Of a DNA stretch of 64,000 nucleotides, positions 5,878-61,331 are shown one piece after another (position 1 is the stretch's first letter; the number at the start of each line of letters is the position of its first letter). The notes under the pieces are model-generated. The model did no database searches. It was not told the DNA's origin and worked only from the letters and a program-made list of their open reading frames with translations. Source of the stretch: Deltaproteobacteria bacterium (GTDB taxonomy: Bacteria > Desulfobacterota > GWC2-55-46 > UBA9637). Location: positions 36,089 through 100,088 of the forward strand of contig JACRNJ010000010.1 in NCBI GenBank assembly GCA_016219285.1, in the 5' to 3' direction. The position numbers were made by a program, and so were the translations under genes.

Positions 5878-6478
5878 ATGAGGATGGGAATGCAAACAAC
5901 TATTTCGCAGGTTGATTACAAAAAACAGTATACTTACGCTGATTACTTTGCCATCAACGATGACAAGAGATATGAGGTTATGGAGGGGCGTATTATGATG
6001 GTTCCTGCGCCAAATACCTTTCATCAGAGGATTTCCTCGGAAATAGGATATCTTTTCGTTAAATATGTAAAAGGAAACGACCTTGGGTCTGTTTTTCTTG
6101 CCCCGACTGATGTGGTTTTGAGCGATGACGTGGTTGTTCAGCCGGACATCCTGTTTATAAGCAAGGAAAAGGCCGGGATTATAGGGGAGCAAGCCATAAT
6201 GGGGGGCCCCGGACATTGTTGTCGAGATTATCTCTCCATCGTCGTCGTTTAATGATTCGGTAAGAAAGAGAGAGATTTATCAGAGGTTTGGCGTGAAAGA
6301 ATACTGGCTTGTCTTTCCGGAGGAGAAGGCCATAGAAATTATGTGTCTTGAGGCTTGTCCCCGCACGTCTGAAGCGGGGAACGGCATTTACAGGGAGCTT
6401 TGCTCGGCAAAAGAGCAAGGAACCGTAAGGTCTAAATTCCTTCAGGGGCTTGAGGTTGAGTTGAAAGGAGTGTTTTAG
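5878..6478 (+). pseudogene. Uma2-family (DUF820) endonuclease, frameshifted in a G6C4 run
   Basis: The first ORF carries YEVMEGRIMMVPAP...HQRI...QPDILFISK. After ggggggcccc (6201-6210) the expected continuation APDIVVEIISPSSSFNDSVRKREIYQRFGVKEYWLVFP is in another frame. Removing one G restores it. Confidence 0.75.
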
Positions 6479-7147: not shown

Positions 7148-7254
7148 GTTTCTGCCGGTTCAGGTTTGCAAACCTGAACCACAACATTCCTGTCTGCGTG
7201 CCTGCCTGTGCTACGGCAGACAGGCGCAGAACTAAAATCAAGGAGAATAAGAAA

Positions 7255-15445: not shown

Positions 15446-18184
15446 ATGATAGGCACAACGTTAAAAAAGATATTCGGAAGCAAAAATGAGAGGGAACTGA
15501 AAAAGATTCAGCCCATCGTTGAAAAAATCAACAGCCTTGAACCTGATATGCAGAAGCGGGCGGATGCTGAATTGGCGGCGTTTACGCCGAAATTCAAGGA
15601 GCGGCTTAAAAACGGCGAAACATTGGACGATATTTTGCCTGAGGCATTTGCCGTTGTGAGAGAAATGTCAAAGCGGAAACTCAATATGAGGCACTTTGAT
15701 GTCCAACTCATGGGCGGGATTGTTCTGCATCAGGGAAAGATTTCAGAGATGAAAACCGGCGAGGGAAAAACCCTTGTGGCAACATTGCTGCTTTATCTGA
15801 ATGCGCTGGAGAGCAAAGGCTGTCATCTTATTACGGTGAATGATTATCTGGCAAAAAGGGACACGCAGTGGATGGGGCCGCTCTATCACAGCCTCGGTTT
15901 GTCTGTCGGAGTCATACAGCACGATGCTTCTTTTCTCTATGACCCGGCTTATTCGCCAAAGGATGAACGGCTCTTTCATCTGAGGCCGTGCAGCCGCAGA
16001 GAGGCGTATCAGGCAGATATTACCTACGGCACAAACAATGAATATGGTTTTGATTATCTCAGGGATAATATGAAGTTCTCCCTTGAAGAGTATGTTCAGA
16101 GGGAGCTTAATTTTGCGATAGTTGACGAGGTGGACTCTATCCTCATAGATGAGGCAAGGACGCCGCTTATCATATCAGGCCCTGCAGAGGAATCAACGGA
16201 TAAATATTATACCATTGACAGGATAATTCCCGGACTTGCAAAAGATACACATTTTACAGTTGATGAAAAGGCAAGACAGGTTATTCTGACCGAAGAAGGG
16301 GTTGAAAAGGTTGAGCGGCTTTTGAATATAGAAAACCTCTATGACCCGCGCCAGATTGAGACACTGCATCATGTAAATCAGGGTTTGAGGGCGCATGTGC
16401 TCTTTCACCTGGATGTTGACTATGTTGTGAAGGATGACCAGGTTATTATCGTGGATGAGTTCACCGGAAGGCTCATGCCGGGAAGACGTTGGAGCGACGG
16501 GCTTCATCAGGCAATTGAGGCAAAGGAAAAGGCAAAGATAGAAAACGAAAACCAAACCCTTGCAACGATTACATTCCAGAACTATTTCAGGATGTATAAA
16601 AAACTTGCAGGCATGACAGGGACAGCAGACACAGAGGCGGCCGAGTTTCATTCAATTTATAAACTTGAAGTGATGATTATGCCTCCCAACAAGCCAATGA
16701 GGAGAGATGACAACCCTGATTTGATTTATAAGACTGAAAAGGAAAAGTTTAATGCAGTTATAAGAGAAATAGAGGAGTGGAGTGAAAAAGGGAGGCCGGT
16801 ATTAGTCGGCACGATTTCCATAGAAAAGTCTGAAAGGCTTGCCACTCTTCTGTCAAAACGCGGCGTCAAACATCATGTTCTAAATGCAAAGCACCATGAA
16901 AAAGAGGCGGAGATAATATCGCAGGCAGGCAGGGTCGGCGCTGTGACACTCTCAACCAATATGGCTGGAAGGGGAACAGATATTGTACTTGGCGGAAACC
17001 CTGAGTCAATGGCAGCGCAAAAGGCTGGAAAGGACGACACCACAGCGGAATATAAATCCGCGTTAGAGGTTGCTCGCAAGGTTTGCGAAGATGAGAAAAA
17101 GCAGGTTATTGATTTGGGCGGTCTGCATATCATAGGCACGGAGCGGCACGAGTCGCGCAGAATAGACAACCAGCTTCGCGGGCGCGCAGGGAGGCAGGGA
17201 GATCCTGGTTCGTCAAGGTTTTATCTGTCTATGGAAGATGACCTGCTGCGCATATTTGGTTCTGACAGGATTTCTTCCATCATGGACAGACTTGGCATGG
17301 AAGAGGATGTTCCTATTGAGCATGGCCTTGTCAGCAAGGCAATAGAAAATGCCCAGAAAAAAGTAGAGGCCCATAACTTTGATATAAGGAAGCACCTCCT
17401 TGAATATGATGATGTAATGAATCAACAGAGGGTGGTTGTCTATAAATATAGACGGCAGATCCTTGCGCAGGAAGGCCTGAAAGACATGGTAGCCGATTTT
17501 ATTGACGATATGGCTGAGGAGACTGGATTTACATACGTTGATGAAAAGACACACCCTGATGAGTGGGATACTAAGGCAATAAAGGATGCTGTTTACAAAC
17601 AGTTTGATGCGCAGCTTGATGATAAGCTGTTTGAGGAGATCCAATCACGGGATGCCTTGATAGGCCTTATTTCGGATGAGGCAAAGAAGACATATCAGGA
17701 AAAGCTAGGAGCAATAGGCGCAGAGTCATTTAAGCATCTTGAAAAGATTGTAATGCTTCATACATTGGACACACTTTGGAAAGACCATCTTCTTGCAATG
17801 GACCATTTGAAAGAAGGCATAGGGCTTCGCGGTTACGGCCAGAAAAATCCTTTGCAGGAATATAAAAAAGAAGGGTTTGATCTTTTTCAAGACATGATAT
17901 TCAGGCTGAAGCAAGAGGTATGCGAGAGATTGTTTAAGGTTCAGATTGCGCGGGAAGAACAAGTCTCAACCCTTGAGCCGGTAAAAAGGCCGCAGAGTTT
18001 TGTGTTGAGCAGAGGGGAAGAAAATCAGTGGCAAAGGCCTGCCCCTGCAGGCTTTAAGCAGGGGGCAATGGACAAGGGGCAGGAAGAAAAGCCAAAACCC
18101 GTGCATGTTGCGGAAAAAGTCGGCAGGAATGAACCATGTCCGTGCGGGAGCGGGAAGAAATATAAGAAGTGCTGTGGAAAGTGA
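15446..18184 (+). CDS. secA: Preprotein translocase ATPase SecA
   Basis: 912 aa. MKTGEGKT Walker [21 protein letters not shown]-terminal zinc finger [15 protein letters not shown]. Confidence 0.97.
18036..18066 (+). repeat. PAGFKQG hairpin element, copy a (in frame in secA)
   Basis: ggcctgcccctgcaggctttaagcagggggc. Identical over 31 nt to the sense strand of the copy at 57089-57119. Confidence 0.85.
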
Positions 18185-18191: not shown

Positions 18192-19517
18192 ATGATGAAA
18201 CGGAGAAGCGGAGATAGGGAGAATCGGAGAAAGGGAAAGTCTTTATTCCCCGCTTCCCCGCTTTCCCGCTTCTCCGGTTCACGGTTTTCTGTCCCCGGTT
18301 TTAAAGCTGCCGGTATTGCCTGTGGCATCAAGCATGTCCCCGCAGGCTTTAAGCAGGGAAAGAACGGCAATAAAGACCTTGCCATGATATATTCGGAGTC
18401 GGCTGCTGTTGCAGCAGCCGTGTTTACAAAAAATAAAGTAAAGGCAGCGCCTGTCTTGCTTGATATGCAGAGGCTCAAAAAAGGTTTGTGTCAGGCAATA
18501 ATTATAAACAGCGGAAATGCAAATGCCTGCACAGGCAAAAAAGGCATGGAAGATGCGGCGCGGATGGCTGCGACAGTTGAAGATGTGCTTGGAATAAAAA
18601 AGGGTTTTGTCATGGTTGCGTCAACAGGCGTTATTGGACAGAATCTTCCGATTGACAAGATAGAAAAGGGGATCTCAAAACTTGTTTCGTCTCTTTCAGC
18701 AAAAGGGTGGAATGATGCGGTTCATGCCATTATGACCACAGATGCCTTTCCTAAAGCTGTGTTTGAAAAATGCAGGCTCGGCGGAAAAGAGATTTCTGTT
18801 TTAGGCATTGCCAAAGGCGCGGGCATGATATGCCCGGACATGGCTACTATGCTGGCGTTTCTGGCAACTGATGCTGCAATAGAACAAAAGACTTTGCAAG
18901 CGATGTTGAAGTTATCGGTTGATAATTCGTTTAACTGCATTACTGTTGACGGAGATACATCTACGAATGATACTGTGCTGATACTTGCAAATGGAAAGGC
19001 CGGGAATAAAGAAGTCAGGAGCCAGAAGTCAGGAGTCAGGAGTAAAGACTATAAAACCTTTTCTGAGATGTTGGAAAGAGCCTGTTTGAAACTTGCAAAG
19101 ATGGTTGTCATGGACGGCGAAGGCTCGACAAAGCTGTTGAAGCTTCATGTGAGCGGCGCAAAGACAGATAGTGACGCAAAAAAGATTGCTGAGACTGTTG
19201 CAAATTCGCCGCTTGTGAAGACGGCATTTTTCGGGGAAGACGCAAATTGGGGAAGGATTATGGCGGCAATAGGCCGTTCAGGCGCGGATATGAAACAAGA
19301 AAAGATTAATGTGTATTTCAATAATGTGCCTGTTGTAATGAAGGGGCAGGGGGCAGCATGCAAGGGGCAAGATAGAGAAAAGATGGCTGCAAAGGCTGTG
19401 AAGCAAAAAGAGGTTTGTATAAGGATTGAACTGGGTATGGGCAGGGGGATTGCAACTGTCTGGGCAAGCGATCTGTCGTATGAATATGTTAGGATAAATG
19501 CAGCGTACAGAACGTAG
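18192..19517 (+). CDS. argJ: Bifunctional ornithine acetyltransferase / N-acetylglutamate synthase
   Basis: VPGFKAAGIACGIK near the N-terminus, autoprocessing-region ATMLAF/TDA pattern, C-terminal SYEYVRINAAYRT. Start placed at ATG 18192, because the ORF-track start at 18105 overlaps secA and is unlikely. Confidence 0.9.
   Translation: MMKRRSGDRENRRKGKSLFPASPLSRFSGSRFSVPGFKAAGIACGIKHVPAGFKQGKNGNKDLAMIYSESAAVAAAVFTKNKVKAAPVLLDMQRLKKGLCQAIIINSGNANACTGKKGMEDAARMAATVEDVLGIKKGFVMVASTGVIGQNLPIDKIEKGISKLVSSLSAKGWNDAVHAIMTTDAFPKAVFEKCRLGGKEISVLGIAKGAGMICPDMATMLAFLATDAAIEQKTLQAMLKLSVDNSFNCITVDGDTSTNDTVLILANGKAGNKEVRSQKSGVRSKDYKTFSEMLERACLKLAKMVVMDGEGSTKLLKLHVSGAKTDSDAKKIAETVANSPLVKTAFFGEDANWGRIMAAIGRSGADMKQEKINVYFNNVPVVMKGQGAACKGQDREKMAAKAVKQKEVCIRIELGMGRGIATVWASDLSYEYVRINAAYRT
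18201..18276. repeat. Inverted purine/pyrimidine-rich array hairpin at the argJ 5' end
   Basis: cggagaagcggagatagggagaatcggagaaagggaaag ... ttccccgcttccccgctttcccgcttctccg. A related arm occurs at about 50905-50935. Confidence 0.65.
18330..18359 (+). repeat. PAGFKQG hairpin element, copy b (in frame in argJ)
   Basis: aagcatgtccccgcaggctttaagcaggga. Differs at two positions from the sense strand of the lysA copy. Confidence 0.85.
19012..19045. repeat. GTCAGGA-type heptamer array inside argJ
   Basis: aagtcaggagccagaagtcaggagtcaggagtaa, translated EVRSQKSGVRSK. No obvious complementary arm nearby. Confidence 0.6.
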
Positions 19518-19566
19518 TTGCCCATTTATGGGTGTGTTTAAGAACGCCGATAAATCGGCAGGCTGC
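19514..19566 (+). repeat. GTAG...CTRC REPIN-like doublet
   Basis: GTAG-ttgcccatttatgggt ... cgccgataaatcggcagg-CTGC. The GTAG overlaps the argJ stop codon. Confidence 0.75.
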
Positions 19567-20006: not shown

Positions 20007-20079
20007 GTAGCTGCCGATTCATCGGCGTTTTCAAAAGCGCCCATGGGGCGCTCAACAGAAGGTTGGGTCGGGCAACTAC
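20007..20079 (-). repeat. GTAG...CTAC three-module REPIN-like element (inverse orientation relative to 34979-35055)
   Basis: GTAG-ctgccgattcatcggc-...-gcgcccatggggcgc-tcaacagaaggttgggtcgggcaa-CTAC. It is the reverse complement of the 34979-35055 element with a few substitutions. Confidence 0.8.
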
Positions 20080-20876: not shown

Positions 20877-20905
20877 GGCCTGTCCCTGCAGACTTTAAGC
20901 AAGGG
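20877..20905 (+). repeat. PAGFKQG hairpin element, copy c (intergenic)
   Basis: ggcctgtccctgcagactttaagcaaggg, embedded between gtcaggg and gtcagga heptamers. Confidence 0.75.
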
Positions 20906-28713: not shown

Positions 28714-29658
28714 ATGGCAAGGAAACCAAGGATAGAATTTAATGGGGCGTTCTATCATGTCATTACTCGCGGCAACCAACAGCAAAAGACATTCAAAGAA
28801 CGGAATGACTTTCAAAAATACATGGAAATCTTGTCAAGCTATAAACAAAAATACAACTTTCTTGTTTACGCCTATATTCTTATGAGCAACCATGTGCATT
28901 TGCTAATAGAAACCGCGCAAACGCCGCTATCCAAGATACTTCAAGGAATAAACCAAAGCTACACCATGTATTTTAACAGGAAATACAAAACATCAGGGCA
29001 TCTTTTTCAGGGAAGATATAAAGCAATCCTGTGTGATAGAGATGAATACCTGTTGGTACTGATAAAATATATCCATCACAATCCTGTAAGGGCGAAAATA
29101 GTGGAGAGGCCTGACGAATATGAGTGGAGCAGTTACCGGCATTATGTCCAAAGACAAGAACAGGCAGGCATCGTAGATACAGACCATGTTCTCAGGATGT
29201 TTTCAGAGGATAAAACAACAGCCAGAAAGCTTTTTAGGGCGTATATATCTGAAAGGGCAGGCATGGGCGGAGATGAGATATACCGGACTGTTGACCAGCG
29301 TATATTGGGCGATGAAGAATTCATAGAAAAGGTGAAAGAAAAAAGCAATGGCAATATAAATAGTGGTAAAAGACCCTGGCAATACAGCCTGAATACTATC
29401 ATGGGGGTGATAGAGATAGCATACGGGGTTTCATTGAAAGAAATCCGCAGTTCGGGCAAGGATAGAGCCTTGACAAAAGCGAAAACAGTTTTAAGCCTGG
29501 TTGCCGGAGAATACGGATATAAAAACAAGGAGATAGCGGATTTTATACAAAAAGACCCTGTAGTTATAACAAGACATTTAAAGGAAAGGGCTAATTTACA
29601 GAAAGATATGGAGAAGGTTATGGGGCTATTGAATGGAAAACTAATTGTCAATAAGTAA
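28714..29658 (+). CDS. REP-associated tyrosine transposase (RAYT; IS200-like Y1/HUH transposase) with DnaA-C-like HTH tail
   Basis: 314 aa. FYHVITRGN, HUH motif SNHVHLLI, catalytic Tyr region YIHHNPVRA. The C-terminal SSGKDRALTKAKTVLSLVAGEYGYKNKEIADFI..DPVVITRHL resembles DnaA domain IV. Confidence 0.85.
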   Translation: MARKPRIEFNGAFYHVITRGNQQQKTFKERNDFQKYMEILSSYKQKYNFLVYAYILMSNHVHLLIETAQTPLSKILQGINQSYTMYFNRKYKTSGHLFQGRYKAILCDRDEYLLVLIKYIHHNPVRAKIVERPDEYEWSSYRHYVQRQEQAGIVDTDHVLRMFSEDKTTARKLFRAYISERAGMGGDEIYRTVDQRILGDEEFIEKVKEKSNGNINSGKRPWQYSLNTIMGVIEIAYGVSLKEIRSSGKDRALTKAKTVLSLVAGEYGYKNKEIADFIQKDPVVITRHLKERANLQKDMEKVMGLLNGKLIVNK

Positions 29659-34380: not shown

Positions 34381-34977
34381 ATGACCCTTAGTGTGTTGAT
34401 ATATCTATCCCAAAGGTGTTTTAAGACGTTGGTGCTATGCATAATTCTATTTGCGGGCCTCTCGGTTGGGTTTACACCTGTTTTTGGCATGGATATAACA
34501 AAAGTACGGACAATTGCAGGCAAGCTGGAACAATTGACAGGCCAGAATATTAAAATTGTAGTAGAAAACTCCATTAAACCAGATGCATACCTTCACCCAA
34601 TGGGATATATAGTTATAACCAGTGGTCTGATGAGATTTTTTGAAGATGATGCGGAAATGGTTTTTATAATAGGCCATGAATGGGCGCATGTTATAAAAGG
34701 GCATTATAAAGACGAGCAAGATATCCTGGGTATTTCAAAGAATATATCCAACCCTGATAAATTAAAAGCAGATAAACTTAAAAAAGAGATGGATGCTGAT
34801 GCCTATGGGCTGGGTGTTATGAAGGCTCTTGGTTATGACTCTGCAGCCTCTCTTAAGGTGTTAGCCAAATTGCGTCAGGTAATGGGCCAAAATGGAATGG
34901 AGGGATATTCATCTATAGAAGAAAGGATGAATATCTTGAATGGACTGCTGAACTATAGTGGAGGACAAAATAAGTAG
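34381..34977 (+). CDS. Small HExxH metallopeptidase (M48-like)
   Basis: 198 aa, N-terminal hydrophobic segment, FIIGHEWAHVIKGHY zinc-binding motif. Confidence 0.6.
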   Translation: MTLSVLIYLSQRCFKTLVLCIILFAGLSVGFTPVFGMDITKVRTIAGKLEQLTGQNIKIVVENSIKPDAYLHPMGYIVITSGLMRFFEDDAEMVFIIGHEWAHVIKGHYKDEQDILGISKNISNPDKLKADKLKKEMDADAYGLGVMKALGYDSAASLKVLAKLRQVMGQNGMEGYSSIEERMNILNGLLNYSGGQNK

Positions 34978-34978
34978 A

Positions 34979-35055
34979 TGTGGTTTGCCCGACCCAACCT
35001 TCTGTTGGGCGCCCCATGGGCGTATTTTAAAATAGCCGATAAATCGGCAGACTAC
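34979..35055 (+). repeat. Three-module REPIN-like element (GTGG...CTAC)
   Basis: tgtggtttgcccgacccaaccttctgttgggcgccccatgggcg...gccgataaatcggcagactac. Starts right after the M48-like stop codon, which itself lies in a GTAG. Confidence 0.8.
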
Positions 35056-40467: not shown

Positions 40468-41715
40468 ATGCTGGGCGTTACAAAACTTTTATGCGAAACC
40501 ATGACGACGGAGAGAGGTGTTGCCGGTAAAGGGCACGGTCACGGCGTATCTCCAAGGCTTCTCCAGTTTTCAGAAGTCAAGAGACCCATCGTTGTCTGGA
40601 ATATTACCAAGAGATGCAACTTGAGGTGTATTCACTGTTACTCCGATTCACTCAATCAGGATTATCAGGGTGAATTGATGACCGAAGAGGCAAAGCAGGT
40701 AATAGACGACCTGGCTGGTTTTGGGGCGCCTGTTATAATCTTTTCAGGCGGCGACCCGCTTTTGAGAAATGATATATTTGAAATTGCAAACTATGCAGGC
40801 TCAAAGGGCATAAGGTGCGCGCTATCCACAAATGGTGTTTTGATAGACAAGGCAACTGCAAAGGCGATTAAGGATGCAAACTTTGCCTATGTTGGTGTGA
40901 GTATAGACGGCATTGGTGAATTTAATGACAGGTTCAGGGGTATGATTGGCGCTTATAATATGGCATTAGAAGGCATACGAAACAGCAGAGACGCGGGTGT
41001 GAGGACAGGCCTGCGTCTTACCCTGAATAAGAGGACACTGCCTCAGCTTCCGGCCATATTTGATTTGGCAGAGGCGGAAAACATCCCCAGGGTTTATATA
41101 TCACATCTTGTATATGCAGGTCGTGGAAATAAAATTAAAAAGGATGATTTAAGCCATGAAGAGACAAGGAAGGCATTGGATTTCATATTTGAAAAGGCAA
41201 TTGAATTTCATCAAAAGGGATTAGAGAAGGATGTGCTTACAGGCAATAACGATGCAGATGGAGTTTATCTTTATCTCAAAGTAAAGAGAGAAGATGAAGC
41301 AAAGGCTGAAAAGATTTACAAGCTTTTAAAGATGAGGGGAGGGAACAGCTCAGGCACTGCCATTGGCTGTATTGATAATATAGGCAATGTGCATGCAGAC
41401 CAGTTTTGGAGCCGCTACTCATTTGGCAATGTGAAAGAGAAAACCTTTAGCCAGATATGGACAGACACAAAAGACCCTGTCATGTGCGGGCTTAAGAATA
41501 AAAAAGAGTCTGTAAGGGGCAGGTGCGGCCACTGTTCATATCTTGATATATGCGGTGGAAACTATAGGGTGAGGGCAGAGGCAATATATGGAGATGTATG
41601 GGCAGAAGACCCTGCTTGCTATTTGGCAGACGAGGAAATAGGGATAAAGAGGCAGGCAATAGGCAATGGGCAAGAGGCAATAGGAGAAGAGAAACGATAT
41701 GCAGAAATTGTATAA
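40468..41715 (+). CDS. nirJ: Heme d1 biosynthesis radical SAM protein NirJ
   Basis: 415 aa. CNLRCIHC radical SAM cluster motif, C-terminal Cys-rich auxiliary cluster region (CGHCSYLDICGG). The last ~25 residues are encoded by a GGCAATR heptamer array (41651-41684). Confidence 0.85.
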   Translation: MLGVTKLLCETMTTERGVAGKGHGHGVSPRLLQFSEVKRPIVVWNITKRCNLRCIHCYSDSLNQDYQGELMTEEAKQVIDDLAGFGAPVIIFSGGDPLLRNDIFEIANYAGSKGIRCALSTNGVLIDKATAKAIKDANFAYVGVSIDGIGEFNDRFRGMIGAYNMALEGIRNSRDAGVRTGLRLTLNKRTLPQLPAIFDLAEAENIPRVYISHLVYAGRGNKIKKDDLSHEETRKALDFIFEKAIEFHQKGLEKDVLTGNNDADGVYLYLKVKREDEAKAEKIYKLLKMRGGNSSGTAIGCIDNIGNVHADQFWSRYSFGNVKEKTFSQIWTDTKDPVMCGLKNKKESVRGRCGHCSYLDICGGNYRVRAEAIYGDVWAEDPACYLADEEIGIKRQAIGNGQEAIGEEKRYAEIV

Positions 41716-43006
41716 AAAAAATATTCAAGGTAGTTGCCGATTTATCGGCGTTTTTAAACCTGTCCCCGCAGGCTTTAAGCGTGGATACGCCCATAAATGG
41801 GCAGCTACAATTTTATTTGCATGTTTTAGCCTTTTAATATTCTCAAAGGCCATAGCATTTGCCGCAGACAAGGATGCTTACGGCACTGCCTCTTTAATGG
41901 TGATTGTTGAAAGAGAGGCAGGAAGTGTGATTGTTATTGATTCTTCAAGGCATAAATTATTAGGCCGGATTTCGAATCTTGGCAATCTCATACATGCTAC
42001 CGTCAAGTTTTCAAAGGATGCAAGGTTCGCCTATGTGATAGGCAGGGATGCATCCGTAAGCAAGATAGACCTGTTGAAATTAAAACTTGTGAAAAAGGTG
42101 AGGGCAGGGGATGACTCTGTAGGCGGCGTAATGACTCAGGACGGCAAATATGTCGCCCTAAGCAACTATGTGCCGGGCGAGGTCAGAATACTTGATGCGG
42201 AGACATTGGAAACAGTAAAGATAATTCCGGCAGAGAGAGAGTATCCTGACGGCAAAAAAATAGCGGCAAGGGTTGTCGGCCTGGTGGATGCGCCTGGAAA
42301 TCTCCTTGTATTTTCAATGATGGATAATGACGGAATATGGGTTGTAGATGCAGGCAAAAAGGATTTTCCAGTAACAAAGAAATTCTGGGATATTGGCGAA
42401 ACTCCCTATGACGGGCTTATAACCCCTGACGGCAGATATTATATCTCAGGCCTTTTAAACTCCAATTGGGTTGGACTTCTGGATATTTGGGATATGACAG
42501 AGGTTAAAAGGATTTCAACTATAAAGACGAAAGATGCGAGGGGGACAGGAGAAGATATTGTCCCTTTGTGGAAGATACCGCATCTAAAAGGATGGGCTAT
42601 TGCAGGCGATTACGCAGTGATTCCTGCTATTAAGAGAGAGGTGGCATTGGTTTACAATATAAGGGATTGGAGCATAATAAAGGAAGTGCCTCTGGTTGGC
42701 ACTGCGCTCTATACAGTTGCAGGCCCTGATGGAAGATATGTGTGGGTTGATTTGGTCGGAAAGAACGGAGACACAATTCAGGTTATAGACCTTAAAACCC
42801 TTGAGGTTGTAAAAACCTTTTCGCCGGGTAAAGGCGCAACCCATCCCCAGTTTACGCCAAAAGGCGATGCGGTTTATATATCGTTGATGGATGAATACAA
42901 GGTGGTGGTTTATAATCCGGTTACTTTTGAAAAGATAACAGAATTTCCGGCGGAAAAACCGTCAGGCATATTTTCAACAGAAAGGGCGCATAAGTTTGGC
43001 ATGTAA
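41699..43006 (+). CDS. nirF: NirF-like cd1 beta-propeller protein without heme c
   Basis: 435 aa. Signal-like segment AATILFACFSLLIFSKAIAFA, propeller homologous to the NirS/NirN d1 domains, no CxxCH. The N-terminal ~35 residues are encoded by a composite repeat element. Confidence 0.7.
   Translation: MQKLYKKNIQGSCRFIGVFKPVPAGFKRGYAHKWAATILFACFSLLIFSKAIAFAADKDAYGTASLMVIVEREAGSVIVIDSSRHKLLGRISNLGNLIHATVKFSKDARFAYVIGRDASVSKIDLLKLKLVKKVRAGDDSVGGVMTQDGKYVALSNYVPGEVRILDAETLETVKIIPAEREYPDGKKIAARVVGLVDAPGNLLVFSMMDNDGIWVVDAGKKDFPVTKKFWDIGETPYDGLITPDGRYYISGLLNSNWVGLLDIWDMTEVKRISTIKTKDARGTGEDIVPLWKIPHLKGWAIAGDYAVIPAIKREVALVYNIRDWSIIKEVPLVGTALYTVAGPDGRYVWVDLVGKNGDTIQVIDLKTLEVVKTFSPGKGATHPQFTPKGDAVYISLMDEYKVVVYNPVTFEKITEFPAEKPSGIFSTERAHKFGM
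41730..41808 (+). repeat. GTAG...CTAC composite element carrying a PAGFK hairpin module, inside the nirF 5' coding region
   Basis: GTAG-ttgccgatttatcggc-gtttttaaa-cctgtccccgcaggctttaagcgtgga-tacgcccataaatgggcag-CTAC. Confidence 0.8.
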
Positions 43007-43848: not shown

Positions 43849-43889
43849 TTCATGCTGAAAATGCCCATCTGCTGCGGTTTCTGCGTTCA

Positions 43890-43959
43890 ACCCTTGACAA
43901 AGCTGTCCTTGGCCAAAGCCAAGGGCTTGCCTTTGGCAAGCCACAGATTTGTCAAGGGT
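43890..43959. repeat. Composite palindrome closed by ACCCTTGACAAA / TTTGTCAAGGGT with two inner hairpins
   Basis: Outer 12-bp inverted repeat. Inner ccttggc-caaa-gccaagg and gcttgcc-tttg-gcaagc hairpins. Confidence 0.8.
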
Positions 43960-43969
43960 CAACATACCT

Positions 43970-44050
43970 GTAGCTTGCCCATCCCCGCTAAAAATCTGCG
44001 GGAACATGTTTATGGGCATATTTAAAAGCGCCGATAAATCGGCCGACTAC
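43970..44050 (+). repeat. GTAG...CTAC doublet whose first hairpin loop is interrupted by a PAGFK-type hairpin (antisense)
   Basis: GTAG-cttgcccat[ccccgctaaaaatctgcgggaacatg]tttatgggc...gccgataaatcggccga-CTAC. Confidence 0.75.
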
Positions 44051-44053
44051 AGC

Positions 44054-44143
44054 GCCTTGCCCTTGACAAACTATCTCCTTTGCCAAAGGCAAAAGAGTTT
44101 TGTGTTTTGCTTCGTAAAAACACATAATTTGTCAAGGGCTTGC
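44054..44143. repeat. Second CCCTTGACAAA / TTTGTCAAGGG composite palindrome
   Basis: gccttgcccttgacaaa ... atttgtcaagggcttgc with inner hairpins (cctttgcc-aaa-ggcaaaag; tgtgtttt...aaaacaca). Confidence 0.75.
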
Positions 44144-44209
44144 ATCTGGACAATTTTTGAGCATGAACTGCGATATAATATATCGCAGAGTGTTGGTTAT
44201 TTTTAGACT

Positions 44210-46419: not shown

Positions 46420-47076
46420 GTGAAAAAGATTGCGCCATCTATACTATCTGCTGATTTTACAAAACTGGCAAAGGAGATAAGGGCTGTTGAGGATGCAAAG
46501 GCAGATTATATACATATAGATGTGATGGATGGTCACTTCGTGCCTAATATAACGGTAGGGCCGTTTATTGTAGAGGCGGCAAGAAGGGCAACAAGGCTGC
46601 CTCTTGATGTCCACCTGATGATAGAAAATCCTGATAAGTTTATTCCTGATTTTGCCAAGGCTGGGAGCGATATAATCACTGTTCATGCAGAGGCATGTAA
46701 ACACTTACATAGGACTATCCAGCATATCAAAGAACAAGGTATACGGGCCGGTATATCCTTAAACCCAACAACACCGTTACATGTGCTTGACCATATACTG
46801 GGAGATATTGATATGATATTGATTATGACTGTAAACCCTGGTTTCAGCGGCCAAAGCTTTATAAATTCATGCCTTCCAAAGATAACGCTCATGAGAAGGA
46901 TTCTTGACCAAGGCAATTACAAGGCAGAGCTTGAGATTGACGGAGGGATAAAGGTTTCCAACATAGGTACGGCAGCGAAGGCGGGGGCGGATGTATTTGT
47001 TGCAGGGTCTGCCATATTCGGAAGCGAAAGTTATAAAAAGACAATATCAGCAATGAGGCTGGAGATAGAGGGATAA
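46420..47076 (+). CDS. rpe: Ribulose-phosphate 3-epimerase
   Basis: 218 aa, GTG start. PSILSADF...HIDVMDGHFVPN...MTVNPGFSGQ motifs. Confidence 0.93.
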   Translation: MKKIAPSILSADFTKLAKEIRAVEDAKADYIHIDVMDGHFVPNITVGPFIVEAARRATRLPLDVHLMIENPDKFIPDFAKAGSDIITVHAEACKHLHRTIQHIKEQGIRAGISLNPTTPLHVLDHILGDIDMILIMTVNPGFSGQSFINSCLPKITLMRRILDQGNYKAELEIDGGIKVSNIGTAAKAGADVFVAGSAIFGSESYKKTISAMRLEIEG

Positions 47077-47179
47077 ACGCTATTGTAAATTGCAAGGTGC
47101 AAATTTTTAATAAGATTTTATCTTGCTTATGGCCGCTTGTTTTTGATATCTTATACTTTTCATAGTGGCGCTAAACAAT

Positions 47180-47256
<77 letters not shown>

Positions 47257-47343
47257 ATCAAGACATATGGAATACACAGTATGTAATTTGACATAATATA
47301 CATTATGCGACAAATATAATTGATTCTACTATTCAGAAAAACT

Positions 47344-48078
47344 CTATATTCCCTCTATTTTATCTTTACTATCTATTTTTATCCCTCTTTTTCTCATAGT
47401 ATCCTTTATAACCTTAAGTTTCCAATCCCTGTGGTTATTTATTATTGATAAAACCTCTTTTGGTTTATCGGTTATTTTGACAAGCTCCATATCCTCTGCT
47501 GATATGGTTTTGCTCTTCAACATTGTTGTCTTCATCCAATGGAGCAGGCCGCTCCAATAATCCTTTCCAACAAGAATCAAAGGCAATGGATATATCTTGT
47601 GGGTTTGGATAAGCGTGAGCGCTTCAAAGAACTCATCAAGGGTCCCAAACCCGCCAGGCATACAGACATAGCCCATAGCATATTTTATAAACATCACCTT
47701 TCTGGCGAAGAAGTATTTAAATGTCAAAGATTTGTTCTGAAACGGATTAGGTTTTTGTTCTTTTGGCAAAAGTATATTTAAACCTACAGAGGCGCCGTCA
47801 TTGGTTATAGCGCCTTTGTTGGCTGCCTCCATGACACCAGGCCCCCCGCCAGTTATAATGGTATACCCGTTTTTTACAAGAAGAGTGGAAATTTCCAGAG
47901 TCTGTTTATAATATTTATGATTTCTATGAAATCTTGCTGAACCGAATATGGATACAGCCGGTCCTAGTGTTGAGAGCTCTTCAAAACCCTCCACAAATTC
48001 ACTTATTATCTTGAATATGCGCCATGTTTCCTGACCCTTCAAATCCTCAACCATGTTTCCGGAAAACTCAAATCCCAA
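47344..48078 (-). CDS. LOG-family (TIGR00730) nucleotide phosphoribohydrolase
   Basis: PGGFGTLDEFFE and GGGPGVMEAAN motifs. The first residues overlap a repeat hairpin, so the start may be the downstream ATG (MVEDLKG). Confidence 0.85.
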   Translation of the reverse strand: MGFEFSGNMVEDLKGQETWRIFKIISEFVEGFEELSTLGPAVSIFGSARFHRNHKYYKQTLEISTLLVKNGYTIITGGGPGVMEAANKGAITNDGASVGLNILLPKEQKPNPFQNKSLTFKYFFARKVMFIKYAMGYVCMPGGFGTLDEFFEALTLIQTHKIYPLPLILVGKDYWSGLLHWMKTTMLKSKTISAEDMELVKITDKPKEVLSIINNHRDWKLKVIKDTMRKRGIKIDSKDKIEGI

Positions 48079-53172: not shown

Positions 53173-53222
53173 AGTAAAGTAAAGAATATTCATGCTCAAA
53201 AATTGCCCCGATGCAAAGCGTT

Positions 53223-53315
53223 GTAGTTTGCCGATTTACCTGTCTGCGTGCAACGCACAGGCAGGCGCACAGGCAGGTCGGCGCTTTTAAAGACGTCCAT
53301 AAATGGGCAAGCTAC
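53223..53315 (+). repeat. GTAG...CTAC doublet whose first hairpin is interrupted by a CCTGTCTGC...GCAGGCAGG hairpin
   Basis: GTAG-tttgccgattta[cctgtctgcgtgcaacgcacaggcaggcgcacaggcagg]tcggc...tccataaatgggcaag-CTAC. Confidence 0.75.
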
Positions 53316-53392
53316 AGATATGTGAAGCGCAGCAACGATGGCAACACGGCCTGGTGCCCTCTGGGCGCGGCATTTCTAGCGTGAGCTATCTA

Positions 53393-54463
53393 TCAAAACC
53401 CCAGCAACTTAACCACCTTACCCAGCTCAGTCTCCGCTGTTATAGGCTTGTCAGATGACTTTATTGCTGTATCAGGGTCTTTCAGGCCATGCCCTGTCAA
53501 TGTGCAGACAATTGTATCGCCGTTTTTAAATATACCTTTTTTGTGCATCTTTATAACACCTGCCAGAGATGCGGCAGACGCAGGTTCACAGAATACCCCT
53601 TCCCTTGCAAGAAGCTTATACGCATAAATAATTTCATCATCAGACACCATGTCTATTATCCCGCCCGATTCATCCTTTGCCTTTACTGCATTTTCCCAGC
53701 TTGAAGGATTGCCGATTCTTATGGCAGATGCTATTGTCTCAGGATTTTTTATAGGATGACCCCTTACAATAGGAGCGGAGCCCTCTGCCTCAAATCCCAT
53801 CATCTTTGGCAGACTATCTGTTACCCCTCGTTCCTTAAATTCCTTATAACCTCTCCAGTATGCGGTTATATTGCCGGCATTCCCAACAGGCAGAAAATGG
53901 TATGTGGGCGCAAAACCCAGATGATTGCACACCTCAAATGCCGCAGTCTTCTGGCCTTCAAGCCTGTACGGATTTATTGAATTAACCAATGTTACAGGAT
54001 ACATCATGGAAACCTCTTTCACAATTATCAGGGCTTCGTCAAAATTCCCTTGTATCTGCACAACTTTTGCCCCATGCATCATTGCCTGTGACAACTTGCC
54101 AAGCGCAATCTTTCCTTCTGGTATCAGAACATAGGCCCTTAATCCTCCTCTTGCCGCATACGCAGCGGCAGCAGCAGAAGTATTTCCGGTTGAGGCGCAT
54201 ATTATGGCGTGAGAACCTTCTTCCTTTGCCTTCGATACCGCCATGGTCATGCCCCTGTCCTTGAAGGAGCCTGTTGGGTTCAGCCCCTCATATTTGAGGA
54301 ATATGTTTAAGCCTCTTTCAAACAACTCCCCCATAGTCAAAACCTCTATCAAAGGGGTATTGCCTTCCCTCAGGGTAACTACTGAGTCATCTTTTACCTT
54401 TGGCAAAAATTCCTGAAACTCCCTGATTACTCCGTTCCAATTGCGCGTTTTTGTTGCCTGCAC
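53393..54463 (-). CDS. thrC: Threonine synthase
   Basis: 356 aa. PLP-lysine motif [21 protein letters not shown]. Confidence 0.95.
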
Positions 54464-54728
54464 AGATATCCTCCAAAATTATGGGGTGTGGAAAAATCCT
54501 TTACTGCCGCCTGCTTCCCACATCCGTAGTATTTAAAAAGACTATCAAAACAAGGTGAGAAAGTCATTAAGAATTTTCAACTTCCTTTTTACTATTTCTT
54601 TTACAGATGGCATAATAATGATGACAGCATTTTAAGGTTGAACTGCGATATTTAATTTGTTAAATTTGGATAGTGTAAAAACCAACATGAATTGTAGTCT
54701 GCCGATTTAATAAAAAAGGAGAACCAAT

Positions 54729-55077: not shown

Positions 55078-55134
55078 GTAGCCTGCCCATTTTATGGGCG
55101 CATTGTTACAAACGCCGATAAATCGGCAAACTAC
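55078..55134 (+). repeat. GTAG...CTAC REPIN-like doublet (cleanest copy)
   Basis: GTAG-cctgcccattttatgggcg-cattgttacaaa-cgccgataaatcggcaaa-CTAC. Confidence 0.85.
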
Positions 55135-56160: not shown

Positions 56161-58176
56161 TATGGTTGGATCAGGAATAAATGCTGGCCGCCACTCATTG
56201 ATTTCCAGATGGCGGCGGATTTCCTGCTCAAATCCTTCTGGTATATCGTAATATGTCCTGATAAAGAGATTTATATCAGCAGGCAACGGTTCTTTTTTAC
56301 CCGCGCAAAGCTCTATATAGTTTTTTAATTTTATTTTCCTGCCTTCTGTCGTGTCGTTAGGCCTGATACAGAGTTTAGCTGCAAGAGGCAGGGCTTGCTC
56401 AATAGTTTCAGCAAAACATAAAAGGTGTTGCGGCGCAGGGCCTGTTGGGACTATATCCCCGAGTCTCGTATCCTTTACCTGCCAGAGTCTATCCTGCCCG
56501 ATAAGGTGAATACCATAGTTTTTGAACATCGGCCCGAAGATAACAGGGATGCCGAGCCTTGCCATACCCAGCGCAGAAGAGAATGCCTTCTGCGTGAATG
56601 CGCCCCAGAGTATTACTACTGCGCCAACCCTGTTTATTATATAGTCTGCAATTTCTTTGTAATTATTCTCCGGTTTTCTGTGGCACATTATCTGGGCGAT
56701 TTTTATGCAGGCCCCGATAAGATGAGAAGCAGATACACATGAACCAAGATTTGTTAGGTTTCTGCTGTCAAAAGAGTCAGGATTGTCTTTGAACAAATCT
56801 CCTTTTGCAACATCCATTGAGGCACAGCCGCCAGTGGAAACAATATATCCCCTATTTAGAAATTCTCGGGCAAACATATTAGCAATTGAATCTTCTGGCT
56901 TCTGACTTCTGACTTCTGACTTCTGACTTGCCTCCGGACATCCAAATATCCCTACAATTCCGGGAATCTCACCCATCACAATAGACGGCGCAACTCCCCT
57001 TATTTCACCATCTCGTATAGGGCCGCGGCCAATCCGTAAAAAAGAGTTCGGGGTTCGGAGTTCGGAGTTCGGAGTTTTACTGCCTGCTGCCCCCTGCTTA
57101 AAGCCTGCAGGGGCAGGCCCCTGCCCACTGCCTACTAACTTCAATGCTGCCTCTGCTGCCTTTTTCTTATCCAGAATAATACCCGTCCCATTCTTCAAAA
57201 TATATTCTGACGACTTGTCCAACGGCATGTCCGTTAAATCTCTAAGTCCAAGCGCCGTCTCTTGTGTTGTTGCAATAAGCATACTATTAACCTTACCCGC
57301 CTCGGCAACCACATCCGGCCTTATGCACTGTGTGTCCATAATAACAACATCCGCAATGCCTGATTTAATAACATCCAATTGCATAGCCTGATTGCCTATT
57401 ACCTTAAAACCATGACTATGCCTCGCTGAATCTGATGCTGCACAGCACAGGCCGCAGACCTCCACCTTATCCTTAATACCTCTACTTTCAAGAAGGTGCA
57501 TAATTTCATGGGCAACAGATGAGTTGTGACCAATTATAAGTATTACAGGCTTTGATGTATCAACAGTTTCTAATCCGATAGCTATTATTGGCGAATTGGA
57601 TTCGCCCTTTGGCATGTTCATGGCAGATATCTGCGCAATGTCTGCCACTTCCATGGCAAGGTTATCCAGCATACCTGCATGAAGCGTCTTGCTTACAAAA
57701 TCATCAGGGGATGCCTCTGTGCCGAAGTTTATGGAGGAGAGGAGGTGATTTAACTGGCCTTCTATATAGGTAAGAATATTTCTCAACTCACCCATGTTTT
57801 TTGGCTTACAGCCTGTTATAAGCGTTGTGATTGGAGTTGCTATAGCGGTATGCAGGCCGGTATCTACACGACACTCTTTATCGAACCTGTCTATTAAGTT
57901 TTCTATAAGTCTTACAGCGTGAGATGTATGACCCGATGTTCCTATAACAGCATCTAATAAAATCTCTCTTGCCTTGAAACCAGTTTCATCAATGCCGCAT
58001 TTTCCAACCCCCCCTCCCCCCCCCTTTGTTAAATGGGGGGCAGGGGGGGTTGGCCTGCACGGCCCCATGGCACACAGGTGGCAGGCCTTATTAGACTTTG
58101 AAAATATTGGCAGGTATCTTTCAAGCAGGGTTAAATCCCAGTCTCTTAAATCAAATATATCTAAATATGGTTTCAT
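56155..58176 (-). CDS. Ni-CODH (CooS)-like protein, prismane/CODH family, carrying several repeat-derived in-frame inserts
   Basis: 673 aa. The following line up with CooS B- and C-cluster regions: C-x2-C-x4-C (CHLCAMGPCR) then KCG, GTSGHTSHA, IIGHNSS, CGLCCAA, MDTQCIRPD, GGCASMD, LGSCVSA. Enzyme specificity not established. Confidence 0.55.
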   Translation of the reverse strand: MKPYLDIFDLRDWDLTLLERYLPIFSKSNKACHLCAMGPCRPTPPAPHLTKGGGGGVGKCGIDETGFKAREILLDAVIGTSGHTSHAVRLIENLIDRFDKECRVDTGLHTAIATPITTLITGCKPKNMGELRNILTYIEGQLNHLLSSINFGTEASPDDFVSKTLHAGMLDNLAMEVADIAQISAMNMPKGESNSPIIAIGLETVDTSKPVILIIGHNSSVAHEIMHLLESRGIKDKVEVCGLCCAASDSARHSHGFKVIGNQAMQLDVIKSGIADVVIMDTQCIRPDVVAEAGKVNSMLIATTQETALGLRDLTDMPLDKSSEYILKNGTGIILDKKKAAEAALKLVGSGQGPAPAGFKQGAAGSKTPNSELRTPNSFLRIGRGPIRDGEIRGVAPSIVMGEIPGIVGIFGCPEASQKSEVRSQKPEDSIANMFAREFLNRGYIVSTGGCASMDVAKGDLFKDNPDSFDSRNLTNLGSCVSASHLIGACIKIAQIMCHRKPENNYKEIADYIINRVGAVVILWGAFTQKAFSSALGMARLGIPVIFGPMFKNYGIHLIGQDRLWQVKDTRLGDIVPTGPAPQHLLCFAETIEQALPLAAKLCIRPNDTTEGRKIKLKNYIELCAGKKEPLPADINLFIRTYYDIPEGFEQEIRRHLEINEWRPAFIPDPTIL
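56892..56930. repeat. (TTCTGAC)n heptamer array inside the CooS-like gene
   Basis: cttctgacttctgacttctgacttctgactt. Sense-strand translation SQKSEVRSQKPE. Confidence 0.8.
57044..57078. repeat. (GTTCGGR)n heptamer array inside the CooS-like gene
   Basis: gagttcggggttcggagttcggagttcggagtttt. Sense translation KTPNSELRTPNS. Confidence 0.8.
57089..57119 (-). repeat. PAGFKQG hairpin element, copy e (in frame in the CooS-like gene)
   Basis: The reverse complement is ggcctgcccctgcaggctttaagcagggggc, identical to the secA copy. Confidence 0.85.
58004..58053. repeat. C-run/G-run hairpin in frame in the CooS-like gene
   Basis: ccaaccccccctccccccccctttgttaaatggggggcagggggggttgg. Sense translation PTPPAPHLTKGGGGGVG, located between the CxxCxxxxC motif and the next Cys. 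Confidence 0.7.
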
Positions 58177-59200: not shown

Positions 59201-60481
59201 CTAACTTTTTGCCAGATCCTCTCCCTTTATCAAATCCTTATAAGACTCCCTTTCTCTTATTACAGAGAATTTGTTCCCCTTTACCATAACCTCAGCAGCC
59301 CTCGGTCTTGAGTTATAGTTGCTGGACATGGAAAAACCATAGGCTCCTGCGCTCATTATGGCCATCAAATCGCCTGATTTAAAGTAGAGAAGCTCCCTAT
59401 CCTTCGCAAAGAAATCTCCGGATTCACATATAGGGCCTACCACATCGGCGGTAATCTCTCCCTGCTTAAAATCTGCGGGGACATGCTTGCCGGAATTTTT
59501 CCCGACCGCCTTTATTGCATGATAAGAACCGTAAAGGCTCGGCCTTGCAAGGTCGTTCATGGCAGCGTCAACAATGATAAAATTCTTCTCGGTGCCCTGT
59601 TTTGTGTATAACACCTTTGTAACTAATATACCGGCATTCCCCACCATGACCCTGCCCGGCTCAAATATCAGCGTCACACCCAAGCGCTTTGTCGCATCAA
59701 TCACCGCCTTGCCGTATTTGCTCGGATGCGGCGCATTCTCGTCCTTGTAAGTTATACCAAGGCCGCCGCCCATATCCAGATATTTTACCTCAATCCCCTC
59801 ACTCCCAAGCGTTGTGATAATCTCTTTTGTCTTTTTGAGGGCGTCAATAAACGGAGAAAGCTGCGTAAGCTGTGAACCGATATGGCAGTCAACGCCGATA
59901 GGGGTAAGATTTTTCAGATTGTTTTTTGCATAAACGTATTCCTTAATAGCCTGCTCTGTCTCTATACCGAATTTATTTTTCTTGAGCCCGGTTGAAACAT
60001 ACGGGTGCGTCTTTGGGTCAACATTCGGATTTACCCGTATGGCAAAGCCGGCCTTTTTCTTCAGCCTGCCTGCGATTTTATTTATTGCCCGCAGCTCTTC
60101 AGGGGATTCAACATTGAACATGAGTATGCCGGCCTTCAAGGCATATTCAATTTCATCTTCCCTCTTTCCGACACCTGAATAGACTATCTTTTTAGGATTC
60201 GCCCCGGCCTTTAGCGACCTGAAAAGCTCTCCGCCTGAAACAATATCAACACCGCTCCCTGCTTTGATAAAGGTATTCAGCACTGAAATATTTGAATTCG
60301 CCTTTACAGAATAGCAGATAAGATGCGGCACGGTTTCAAATGCCTCATCAAAGGCCGCGTAATGCCGAGTCAGTGTCTTGTGACTGTAAATATAACACGG
60401 CGTTCCAACCTCTTTAGCGATTTTTTCTATGGATACGGCTTCGGCGTAGAATTTATTTTTCTTGTAGGTGAAAAAGTGCAT
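59201..60481 (-). CDS. lysA: Diaminopimelate decarboxylase
   Basis: 426 aa. PLP-lysine region CYSVKAN, GGGLGI, ICESGD motif. Confidence 0.93.
   Translation of the reverse strand: MHFFTYKKNKFYAEAVSIEKIAKEVGTPCYIYSHKTLTRHYAAFDEAFETVPHLICYSVKANSNISVLNTFIKAGSGVDIVSGGELFRSLKAGANPKKIVYSGVGKREDEIEYALKAGILMFNVESPEELRAINKIAGRLKKKAGFAIRVNPNVDPKTHPYVSTGLKKNKFGIETEQAIKEYVYAKNNLKNLTPIGVDCHIGSQLTQLSPFIDALKKTKEIITTLGSEGIEVKYLDMGGGLGITYKDENAPHPSKYGKAVIDATKRLGVTLIFEPGRVMVGNAGILVTKVLYTKQGTEKNFIIVDAAMNDLARPSLYGSYHAIKAVGKNSGKHVPADFKQGEITADVVGPICESGDFFAKDRELLYFKSGDLMAIMSAGAYGFSMSSNYNSRPRAAEVMVKGNKFSVIRERESYKDLIKGEDLAKS
59459..59488 (-). repeat. PAGFKQG hairpin element, copy f (in frame in lysA; reads KHVPADFKQG)
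   Basis: The reverse complement is aagcatgtccccgcagattttaagcaggga. Differs at two positions from the argJ copy. Confidence 0.85.
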
Positions 60482-61109: not shown

Positions 61110-61331
61110 CTACTTTATCCATGCCGTCTCCTGCGGCGGCTTTGGCGGCGCCTTTTTGCCGCAACCTATAACTAGAGTGAACAGTGAAAAGTGAAGAGTG
61201 AATAGTAATAAAAATATTAAATACTTTGTAGTCTGCTGATTTATCAGCGATTTTAAATACGCCCAATGAATTGGGCAACTACACTCCTGACCTTTTAACT
61301 CTCTGCCACTTTGACTCTTTGACACTTTCAT
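61110..61331 (-). CDS. Putative small lipoprotein (LptM/YifL-like), start uncertain
   Basis: Lipobox VIGCGKK followed by a Pro-rich tail, in the usual position between argH and lysA. Most of the upstream ORF is repeat sequence. Confidence 0.4.
61228..61282 (+). repeat. GTAG...CTAC REPIN-like doublet (variant hairpins)
   Basis: GTAG-tctgctgatttatcagcg-attttaaatac-gcccaatgaattgggcaa-CTAC, itself enclosed by heptamer-array arms. Confidence 0.8.

Follow-up and report, generated by a model that had tools for sequence, protein, structure and literature searches.

How does one DNA hairpin come to lie inside the loop of another? The question is raised by a 64,000-nucleotide (nt) stretch from a groundwater Deltaproteobacteria bacterium (assembly GCA_016219285.1, contig JACRNJ010000010.1, positions 36,089 to 100,088; hereafter the window, numbered from its first letter), in which paired palindromic repeats with a GTAG head are interrupted by smaller hairpins. 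A sequence-only reading had listed three such cases and attributed them to preferential insertion into loops by an HUH/Y1-type mechanism acting on single-stranded DNA (ssDNA). Here, we identify the interrupted repeats as repetitive extragenic palindromes (REPs) of the REP/REPIN type, and the sequences that split them as members of distinct families of tiny, non-coding hairpin modules. On balance, we lean towards these families being mobile and handled by an ssDNA enzyme acting in trans, with selection and REP amplification shaping the copies that are seen.

REP hosts and the modules that split them

All three nested cases are present in the sequence, with slightly corrected coordinates. One hairpin of a doublet is split in cases (a) and (b), and in case (c) the module lies between the two hairpins.

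43970..44050, unstranded: case (a), REP doublet with a GCCCAT hairpin (split by a module) and a GCCGAT hairpin
43982..44008, (-): case (a), 27-nt PAGFK-type module CATGTTCCCGCAGATTTTTAGCGGGGA, between GCCCATAA(A) and (A)TGGGC
53223..53315, unstranded: case (b), REP doublet with a GCCGAT hairpin (split after GCCGATTTA) and a GTCCAT/ATGGGC hairpin
53239..53277, (+): case (b) insert, made of the 27-nt module CCTGTCTGCGTGCAACGCACAGGCAGG (53239-53265) and a 12-nt tandem duplication CGCACAGGCAGG (53266-53277)
41730..41808, unstranded: case (c), REP doublet whose spacer holds a module, read in frame within nirF (41699-43006), N-terminal region
41759..41785, (+): case (c), 27-nt module CCTGTCCCCGCAGGCTTTAAGCGTGGA, between both hairpins

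As had been read from the letters, the insert of case (a) is of the PAGFK type, that of case (b) is a different word, and case (c) holds a PAGFK module. Case (a) runs from GTAGCTTGCCCAT through 26-27 nt of insert to TTTATGGGC, a spacer and GCCGATAAATCGGC CGA CTAC, and case (b) from GTAGTTTGCCGATTTA through 39 nt to TCGGC, a spacer and GTCCATAAATGGGC AAG CTAC. When case (a) is folded as DNA, the inner hairpin is nested within the host stem, and the nested folds have z scores of -2.7 to -4.1. Case (b) is reproduced without differences in contigs from four public groundwater runs, which also contain composites similar to case (a) that differ from its insert at about 6 positions. Raw assemblies from four sequencing runs hold the interrupted forms at genome depth, which excludes an artefact confined to one assembly.

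What are the hosts? The GTAG doublets of the window are REP/REPIN-type palindromic repeats, built as heterodimers GTAG-GCCGATTTATCGGC / GCCCATTTATGGGC. Each unit consists of a GTAG head, 2-3 nt, an arm of 6-7 bp, a TT loop and the complementary arm, and the two units of a doublet have slightly different arms (GCCGAT, GCCCAT) and are inverted as GTAG...CTAC; in the fold of 41730-41808, both pair end to end into one long hairpin. About 200 units with the exact stem were found in the first 857 kb searched, some 90% of them with a TT loop, and 635 units with at most one mismatch in 1.7 Mb. The 64-kb window has 8 doublets, mostly extragenic (one is in frame within nirF), and repeat depth is high in the sequencing runs. 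GTAG thus stands at the end of a stem-loop, in an inverted pair, in many mostly extragenic copies, and the doublets resemble described GTAG REPs and REPINs (PMC3116915, PMC3733652) in head, short stem-loop, inverted heterodimer, abundance, intergenic bias and occasional in-frame copies.

The REP sequence is common to more than 10 phyla in a scan with one genome per species, among them Doudnabacteria, Saccharibacteria, Elusimicrobiota, Firestonebacteria, Ignavibacteria, Planctomycetia and groundwater "Deltaproteobacteria" metagenome-assembled genomes (MAGs), the last being relatives of the window genome. The presence of one REP family in such distant phyla, including bacteria of the candidate phyla radiation, sits uneasily with a purely vertical inheritance of REPINs together with REP-associated tyrosine transposases (RAYTs). 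In a Doudnabacteria sequence (L015; L numbers are our own labels), a 137-aa Y1_Tnp gene that is RAYT-like is directly flanked on both sides by GTAG REPs, and a relative of the window (L060) encodes a RAYT.

The modules are 27 nt long in the lineage of the window and 19-24 nt in some other lineages. They begin with a 5' tag YNTGYC (YNTGTC or YNTGCC), followed by a hairpin with the core TCCCYG...CRGGGA, whose stem of 5-7 bp starts with CCC, whose loop has 7-9 nt, and whose 3' end is GGGA or GGGG. At least eight PAGFK-type copies and two CCTGTCTGC-type loci occur in the window, all about 27 nt long; the two hairpin words have 6 and 3 matches where 0.03 and 0.09 are expected. At least 3 of about 10 copies fall within the roughly 72 of 64,000 positions that make up the REP loops or spacers of the window (P ~2e-7). 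About two thirds of the copies lie outside REPs, and five are within open reading frames (ORFs), always in sense and in one reading frame. The copies beyond the nested cases are as follows.

6354..6380, (+): module copy CTTGTCCCCGCACGTCTGAAGCGGGGA
7189..7230, (+): interleaved pair of CCTGTCTGC...CAGGCAGG family words, not within a REP
18038..18064, (+): module copy CCTGCCCCTGCAGGCTTTAAGCAGGGG, inside ORF 15446-18184
18333..18359, (+): module copy in argJ, a 9-aa insertion HVPAGFKQG
20879..20905, (+): module copy immediately downstream of ORF 20043-20864
57091..57117, (-): module copy inside ORF 56155-58176, sense
59459..59485, (-): module copy inside ORF 59201-60481, sense

ORF 15446-18184 is probably SecA-like, judging by the neighbouring gene in L126. 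The locus at 7189-7230 is the one that had been noticed at 7185-7225 as a relative of the case (b) insert, and it does belong to that family; a further relative of the case (b) module, the 30-nt CCTGTCTGCGTGCATAGACGCACAGGCAGG, lies outside any REP in L054. The sequence 5' of a module is WWA in loops and AAG or AGG elsewhere. As the copies in ArgJ (9 aa) and in the N-terminus of NirF illustrate, modules rewrite proteins in frame.

Split positions and orthologous sites

If loops are targets, where along the host do interruptions fall? We searched the window and all fetched loci (about 1.7 Mb) in a position-neutral manner, accepting REP hairpins with 12-70 additional bases at any position. This gave 10 split events: cases (a) and (b), three in L004, and one each in L008, L111, L067, L098 and L233. 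A split search allowing one mismatch was too noisy for counts and served only to recover L233, and a metagenome scan for lengthened doublets, dominated by a soil REP family of other architecture, yielded one new loop case (again L233) and several spacer cases. The hosts represent four phyla or more (by annotation, Deltaproteobacteria, Elusimicrobiota, Proteobacteria, Planctomycetia and Doudnabacteria), have the arms GCCCAT, GCCGAT, GCCCGAT or GCCCAAT, and carry inserts of 19, 21, 24, 27, 31, 39 or 43 nt.

In all ten hairpins the split lies at the loop or at the junction with the 3' arm, and the outer stem is spared; ten central hits have a probability of ~7e-5 under uniform insertion. Read on the module (YNTGYC) strand, every event is compatible with a single junction, namely 5' arm-WW-A^T followed by the rest of the 3' arm, with a looser fit in L098 (insert not starting with the tag) and L233 (3'-arm mismatch). 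Modules occur in either orientation relative to GTAG, and the junction flips accordingly. A calculation for 2 of 13 junctions gives ~7e-9, a value that is post hoc and includes the two loose fits. The varied host arms and varied module sequences speak for several independent events.

Hence, loop targeting is well supported. The preference of different hairpin families for loops stands, with the addition of a fixed polarity, and the insertion coordinates catalogued over the searched sequence are not scattered at random along the hosts. The proposal that hosts are split exactly at the loop needs one amendment: the site is not the loop centre but its 3' edge, with one base of the 3' arm lying ahead of it (WWA^T).

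Spacer cases fit the same preference. They are frequent in the lineage (window case (c), L003, L022, L026, L043, L083 and L115) and sit in the A/T-rich stretch which, in a doublet folded as a single hairpin, becomes the apical loop. Entire REPs are also nested in REP loops or spacers (L054, L026), and about half of the roughly 30 doublets in the lineage set have some additional hairpin. Chimeric hairpins (GCCGAT/ATGGGC in L043; GCCGATTTATCAGC) were considered as evidence of loop recombination and set aside, as one substitution explains each.

Modules behave as discrete units: an orthologous site either has one or lacks it. At nirF, the window has REP1, module and REP2; in an alignment, the doublet of the orthologue L114 is the same except that exactly 27 nt are missing, and the orthologues L115 and L116 have the module hairpin and REP2 without REP1. 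At argJ, the 27 nt encoding HVPAGFKQG are absent from the 30 closest ArgJ proteins; L126 and L127 have an empty site lacking exactly 27 nt, and L125 has a 6-nt footprint that corresponds to a deletion between AAGCA direct repeats. Neither the nirF nor the argJ junctions show flanking homology beyond 1-2 nt or a target duplication, a possible exception elsewhere being the GATTTAT repeat in L098.

For case (b), two joints in the runs (53214>53278 and 53238>53278) were examined as empty sites and rejected: their left flank is itself the end of a repeat (TTCATGCTCAAAAATTG...), differing at 3-6 positions, and alignment ends where the repeat does, so we treat them as paralogues. A contig that skips exactly the 39-nt insert of case (b) has a left flank diverged at about 6 of 50 positions and, given this divergence, represents a paralogue or a related population. 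For case (a), contigs of intact paralogues break at 43982 and 44009. Joined contig alignments suggest a third locus in the case (b) metagenome that carries the 27-nt form.

The N-terminal regions of the NirF orthologues (P0001-P0030; window 41699-41880) have been rebuilt by the in-frame REP doublet, the module and heptamer repeats, while the mature protein is conserved.

Known systems, candidate enzymes and competing explanations

In light of these features, do the modules belong to a known class of element? In the published GTAG REP families, some loops are complex and self-complementary, reaching 27 bp; REP dimers are listed within other palindromes, and some REPs are read in frame in genes (PMC3733652). 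There, loop variants are treated as variation within a family, and not as a second element that lives elsewhere in the genome. Unlike the described GTAG REPs, those of the window have a sequence found in more than 10 phyla, and their inserts have a tag, a copy population and a presence/absence polymorphism of their own.

Small dispersed repeats (SDRs) of Nostocaceae, reportedly described by Elhai in 2008, are said to be mobile repeats of 21-27 nt that are nested in other repeats. The HIP1 palindrome serves as a site of SDR5, and SDRs have been reported in Nostocaceae only (PMC5861425). [quoted passage not shown] They differ in occurring in non-cyanobacterial phyla and in having a defined target, the loop of REP hairpins.

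A second likeness is to the CGTC/TGTC-tagged REPs, the Neisseria dRS3/NTS repeats and the Ssn-related motifs (PMC3733652, PMC11893778). These are oriented hairpins of 27-28 nt with a 5' tag CGTC/TGTC, to which the YNTGTC of the modules bears a resemblance, and a TCCCGCG...CGCGGGA-like core that resembles the module core; moreover, the Rickettsia members RPE-4 and RPE-6 lie in frame in genes (PMC3733652), as modules do. The CGTC REPs have stems of 8-9 bp and loops of 4-5 nt, as against 5-7 bp and 7-9 nt in the modules, which also lack the AT stem start and the CCA tail. On stem, loop and tail, we therefore rule out that the modules are members of CGTC/TGTC REP families 1-4.

REP palindromes are likewise specific targets of insertion sequences (ISs) such as IS1397, ISKpn1, ISRm22 and the IS621/IS110 family, and ISRm22 inserts at the axis of REP palindromy (PMC1525189). 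Those elements are full-length, have their own transposase and in some cases produce target duplications, whereas the inserts described here are 19-39 nt long, non-coding and without recognisable duplication. The same size, and the lack of duplication at nirF and argJ, exclude a MITE, which has the terminal inverted repeats (TIRs) of an IS, a target-site duplication and a length of 70-300 bp. "Peel and paste" elements of the IS200/IS605 type resemble the modules in inserting 3' of a short word on one strand, without target duplication and with precise loss, and the hairpin of a module, too, is preceded by a short 5' word, a possible guide. IS200/IS605 elements encode TnpA and bear two unlike hairpins in subterminal positions; a module has a single hairpin and no gene, and no lagging-strand bias could be demonstrated. 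An IS200/IS605-derived element (PATE), which would insert 3' of a fixed tetra- or pentanucleotide, was rejected on the single hairpin and on the varying 5' flank (WWA, AAG, AGG).

Already known, then, are REPs as IS targets (including at the palindromy axis), complex REP loops, and mobile repeats of 21-27 nt in Nostocaceae. What our analysis adds is the picture of two populations, the single junction rule, presence and absence at orthologous sites, and a spread beyond cyanobacteria.

What might move the modules? In the reading towards which we lean, insertion and precise loss would take place on folded ssDNA and be the work of a structure-specific enzyme, provided in trans, that nicks and joins; selection would keep loop and in-frame insertions, and REP amplification would spread the composites. 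The leading candidates would be a Y1 HUH transposase of the RAYT type and a GIY-YIG ssDNA nuclease of the Ssn type. The window encodes the former.

28714..29658, (+): Y1 HUH transposase gene, RAYT-like, with an HVH motif and the Tyr in YIHHNPV

Its protein scores 60 bits against Pfam Y1_Tnp and 75.7 bits against the NCBIfam REP-associated tyrosine transposase model (cut-off 80), and has a C-terminal extension of about 175 aa. The RAYT of E. coli cleaves and joins REP single strands in vitro, linker sites included (PMC3333891); by analogy, this would make insertion into a linker or spacer plausible. As to the second candidate, Ssn enzymes cut the 28-nt CGTC-tagged hairpin repeats of Neisseria (NTS) on ssDNA (PMC11893778), and by this analogy an Ssn-type nuclease may be regarded as an equally open candidate alongside Y1. 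Ssn is known as a nuclease, not as a joining enzyme, and no ssn gene was seen flanked by modules. A relative of the window (L053) has a single-domain GIY-YIG (Ssn-like) gene at 1076-1426, with the hairpin ATTCCCCGGTTTATCCGGGGAAT before it and the hairpin GCCCGAACAAGTCGGGC at its end, NTS-like as ATTCCCCGG-TTTAT-CCGGGGAAT; 27-nt modules do not flank it. In length and orientation, the modules are consistent with the kind of oriented 20-50-nt hairpin repeat that accompanies single-domain GIY-YIG genes.

We also consider, more tentatively, a wider claim: that the YNTGYC-hairpin modules are widespread, unnamed "nano-transposons" of 19-27 nt, which a trans-acting ssDNA enzyme would paste at a single, defined phosphodiester bond on the 3' edge of loops (WWA^T) and remove precisely, and which would remodel REPs and, in frame, the N-termini and loops of proteins in several phyla, uncultivated groundwater lineages among them. 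If this were so, module and enzyme would together be a natural means of placing DNA in hairpin loops. The rule lends itself to testing at the bench, with one junction and polarity in a hairpin of 14-16 nt, a 27-nt substrate and candidate enzymes, and it bears on the long-standing questions of how REPs diversify and how repeats far below MITE size move.

Several observations weigh against a mobile family served by an enzyme in trans. In the window, neither GTAG REPs nor modules flank the Y1 gene, which has a different and unrelated inverted repeat instead, and no Ssn-like gene was found in the 64 kb; thus, no enzyme is linked to the modules. The flanking repeat is the 27-nt ATTGTCAATAAGTAAGTCTGACCCCTG (28660-28686 and 29644-29670), accompanied by three tandem 26-nt copies (29652-29730), an arrangement described for RAYT genes that have TIRs, not REPs, on their flanks. 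In addition, cleavage by the E. coli RAYT falls next to the hairpin and within linkers, and not in loops (PMC3333891). Gene orientation confounds the strand bias of modules with respect to replication, and the two loop cases run opposite to it. Direction of change is a further difficulty: because the module is present in both the window and L115, it seems to be ancestral at nirF and precise loss is the likelier origin of the L114 state, a result that replication slippage at the hairpin could also give. No empty-site allele of (a) or (b) was found at its own locus in the four runs or in relatives, and the uninterrupted forms of both in the runs are probably paralogues; relatives at 83-86% aa identity are without the entire 319-nt element that fills the atpF-atpA spacer, and hence have no stepwise state. 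Lastly, L003 has composite (c) again, at a site that is not orthologous and with an identical degenerate 3' arm, GCGTGGATAC, and two further run contigs have a case-(a)-like composite with 6 differences. From the recurrence in L003 it follows that independent insertions are fewer than nested copies.

These points alter what can be kept of the sequence-only reading. Its mechanism finds no backing in the Y1 gene of the window, given the flanks of that gene. Its suggestion that the PAGFKQG element shares the machinery of the GTAG elements has to be weighed against the predominance of copies outside REPs and a tag and core that look nearer to those of CGTC/NTS repeats, whose Neisseria partner is a GIY-YIG nuclease (PMC11893778). 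The search for empty sites that it called for succeeded at nirF and argJ and failed for (a) and (b) at their own loci. Insertion as the source of nesting is upheld by discrete indels at orthologous sites and limited by composites copied as whole units (L003; run contigs), so that not every case is independent.

The copying of composites leads to the strongest alternative, which we think unlikely: after rare entries into a loop or spacer, composite REP subfamilies would have spread by normal REP/REPIN amplification, and nestedness would simply reflect that amplification. The composite shared with L003, down to its degenerate arm, and the two run contigs speak for it, as do the common loop expansion of a large soil REP subfamily, GCCGATTA[TGNATTTTAACAAAT]TAATC, and the published description of self-complementary GTAG REP loops as sequence variants (PMC3733652). 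It does not account for the same module family in hosts with different arms and in different phyla, for modules standing alone in genes and intergenic DNA, or for an exact 27-nt gain or loss within an otherwise conserved doublet; it also still requires a first, loop-specific event with a fixed junction.

Could loops gain and lose hairpins without any dedicated enzyme? Loops may be fragile, exposed to structure-specific nucleases and replication stalling, and template switching, capture of filler DNA or gene conversion might then add and remove hairpins. The L125 footprint in argJ, a deletion between 5-nt direct repeats (AAGCA...AAGCA), would be of this kind, and so may be the 12-nt tandem duplication in case (b), a half REP broken at the same junction (54694-54709) and the greater likelihood of loss over gain at nirF. 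An oriented tag YNTGYC with the core TCCCYG...CRGGGA across phyla, and one junction and polarity in 10 of 10 events, are not expected from unspecific repair, and the homology at the nirF and argJ junctions does not exceed 1-2 nt; we regard this explanation as improbable.

Chance resemblance or misassembly is very hard to credit, for although assembly of short repeats is difficult, with unitigs ending at each copy, case (b) comes out identical in four independent runs alongside (a)-like composites, unrelated public genomes have the same architecture, and the word counts and P values given above (~2e-7, ~7e-5) argue against coincidence.

Further repeats of the window

Other GTAG doublets of the window are uninterrupted or carry a different addition.

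19514..19565, unstranded: intact doublet, used for comparison
55078..55134, unstranded: intact doublet, used for comparison, fold computed
61228..61282, unstranded: intact doublet with GCTGAT and GCCCAAT arms
20007..20079, unstranded: doublet variant with an additional CCCAAC-N5-GTTGGG hairpin next to the second REP
34974..35055, unstranded: the CCCAAC-hairpin variant in the opposite orientation

The CCCAAC-hairpin variant is also found in L025, L081, L082, L100 and L142, and together with about 30 nt of flank it is kept across several MAGs, one of them annotated as Ignavibacteriae (95% identity over 116 nt). We attempted to divide the copies at 20007 and 34974 into host and insert, and no such partition was obtained. 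A half REP, GTAGTCTGCCGATTTA, at 54694..54709 (+) is broken at the A^T junction where modules insert and is followed by unrelated sequence with a ribosome-binding site and the start of ORF 54729-55061. Contigs from soil metagenomes (L128-L247) hold a large family of REPs built as GTAGGGGCCGATTTATCGYGCCCAYC + GCCGATTTATCGGC, and the loop expansion of the subfamily mentioned above is 15-17 nt long and does not form a hairpin. A search of Rfam at the nested-hairpin sites returned no known RNA family.

Doublets (a) and (b) each lie within a larger element.

43849..44167, unstranded: inverted-repeat element with ends TTCATGCTSAAAAWTG..CAGATGC, carrying doublet (a) and two CCCTTGACAAA...TTTGTCAAGGG elements
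53190..53400, unstranded: second, degenerate copy of the TTCATGCTSAAAAWTG..CAGATGC element, carrying doublet (b)

The first fills the atpF-atpA spacer, which measures only 76-106 nt in relatives, and with its GTAG doublet and CCCTTGACAAA...TTTGTCAAGGG elements it reaches three to four levels of nesting. Two further inverted-repeat elements of 83 nt, ACCCCGTTAGAAGC...GCTTCTAACGGGGTT, at 36307-36389 and 39871-39953, are 73% alike and flank the nirS region; the former comes after a small ORF of the Zn-ribbon (IS1595-type) kind (35917-36306), whose synteny is kept in L115. Tandem heptamer or pentamer repeats stand at gene ends, for example at 430-456, 3431-3496, 7031-7084, 19007-19051, 48063-48110 and 57040-57075, and in relatives they form inverted arrays in the intergenic slots of REP doublets (the argJ-HEPN and atpF-atpA spacers). 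At about 47000-48000, near a tRNA gene (47180-47253), GC skew changes sign and gene orientation turns from + to -, so that this part of the window looks like a replication terminus with converging forks.

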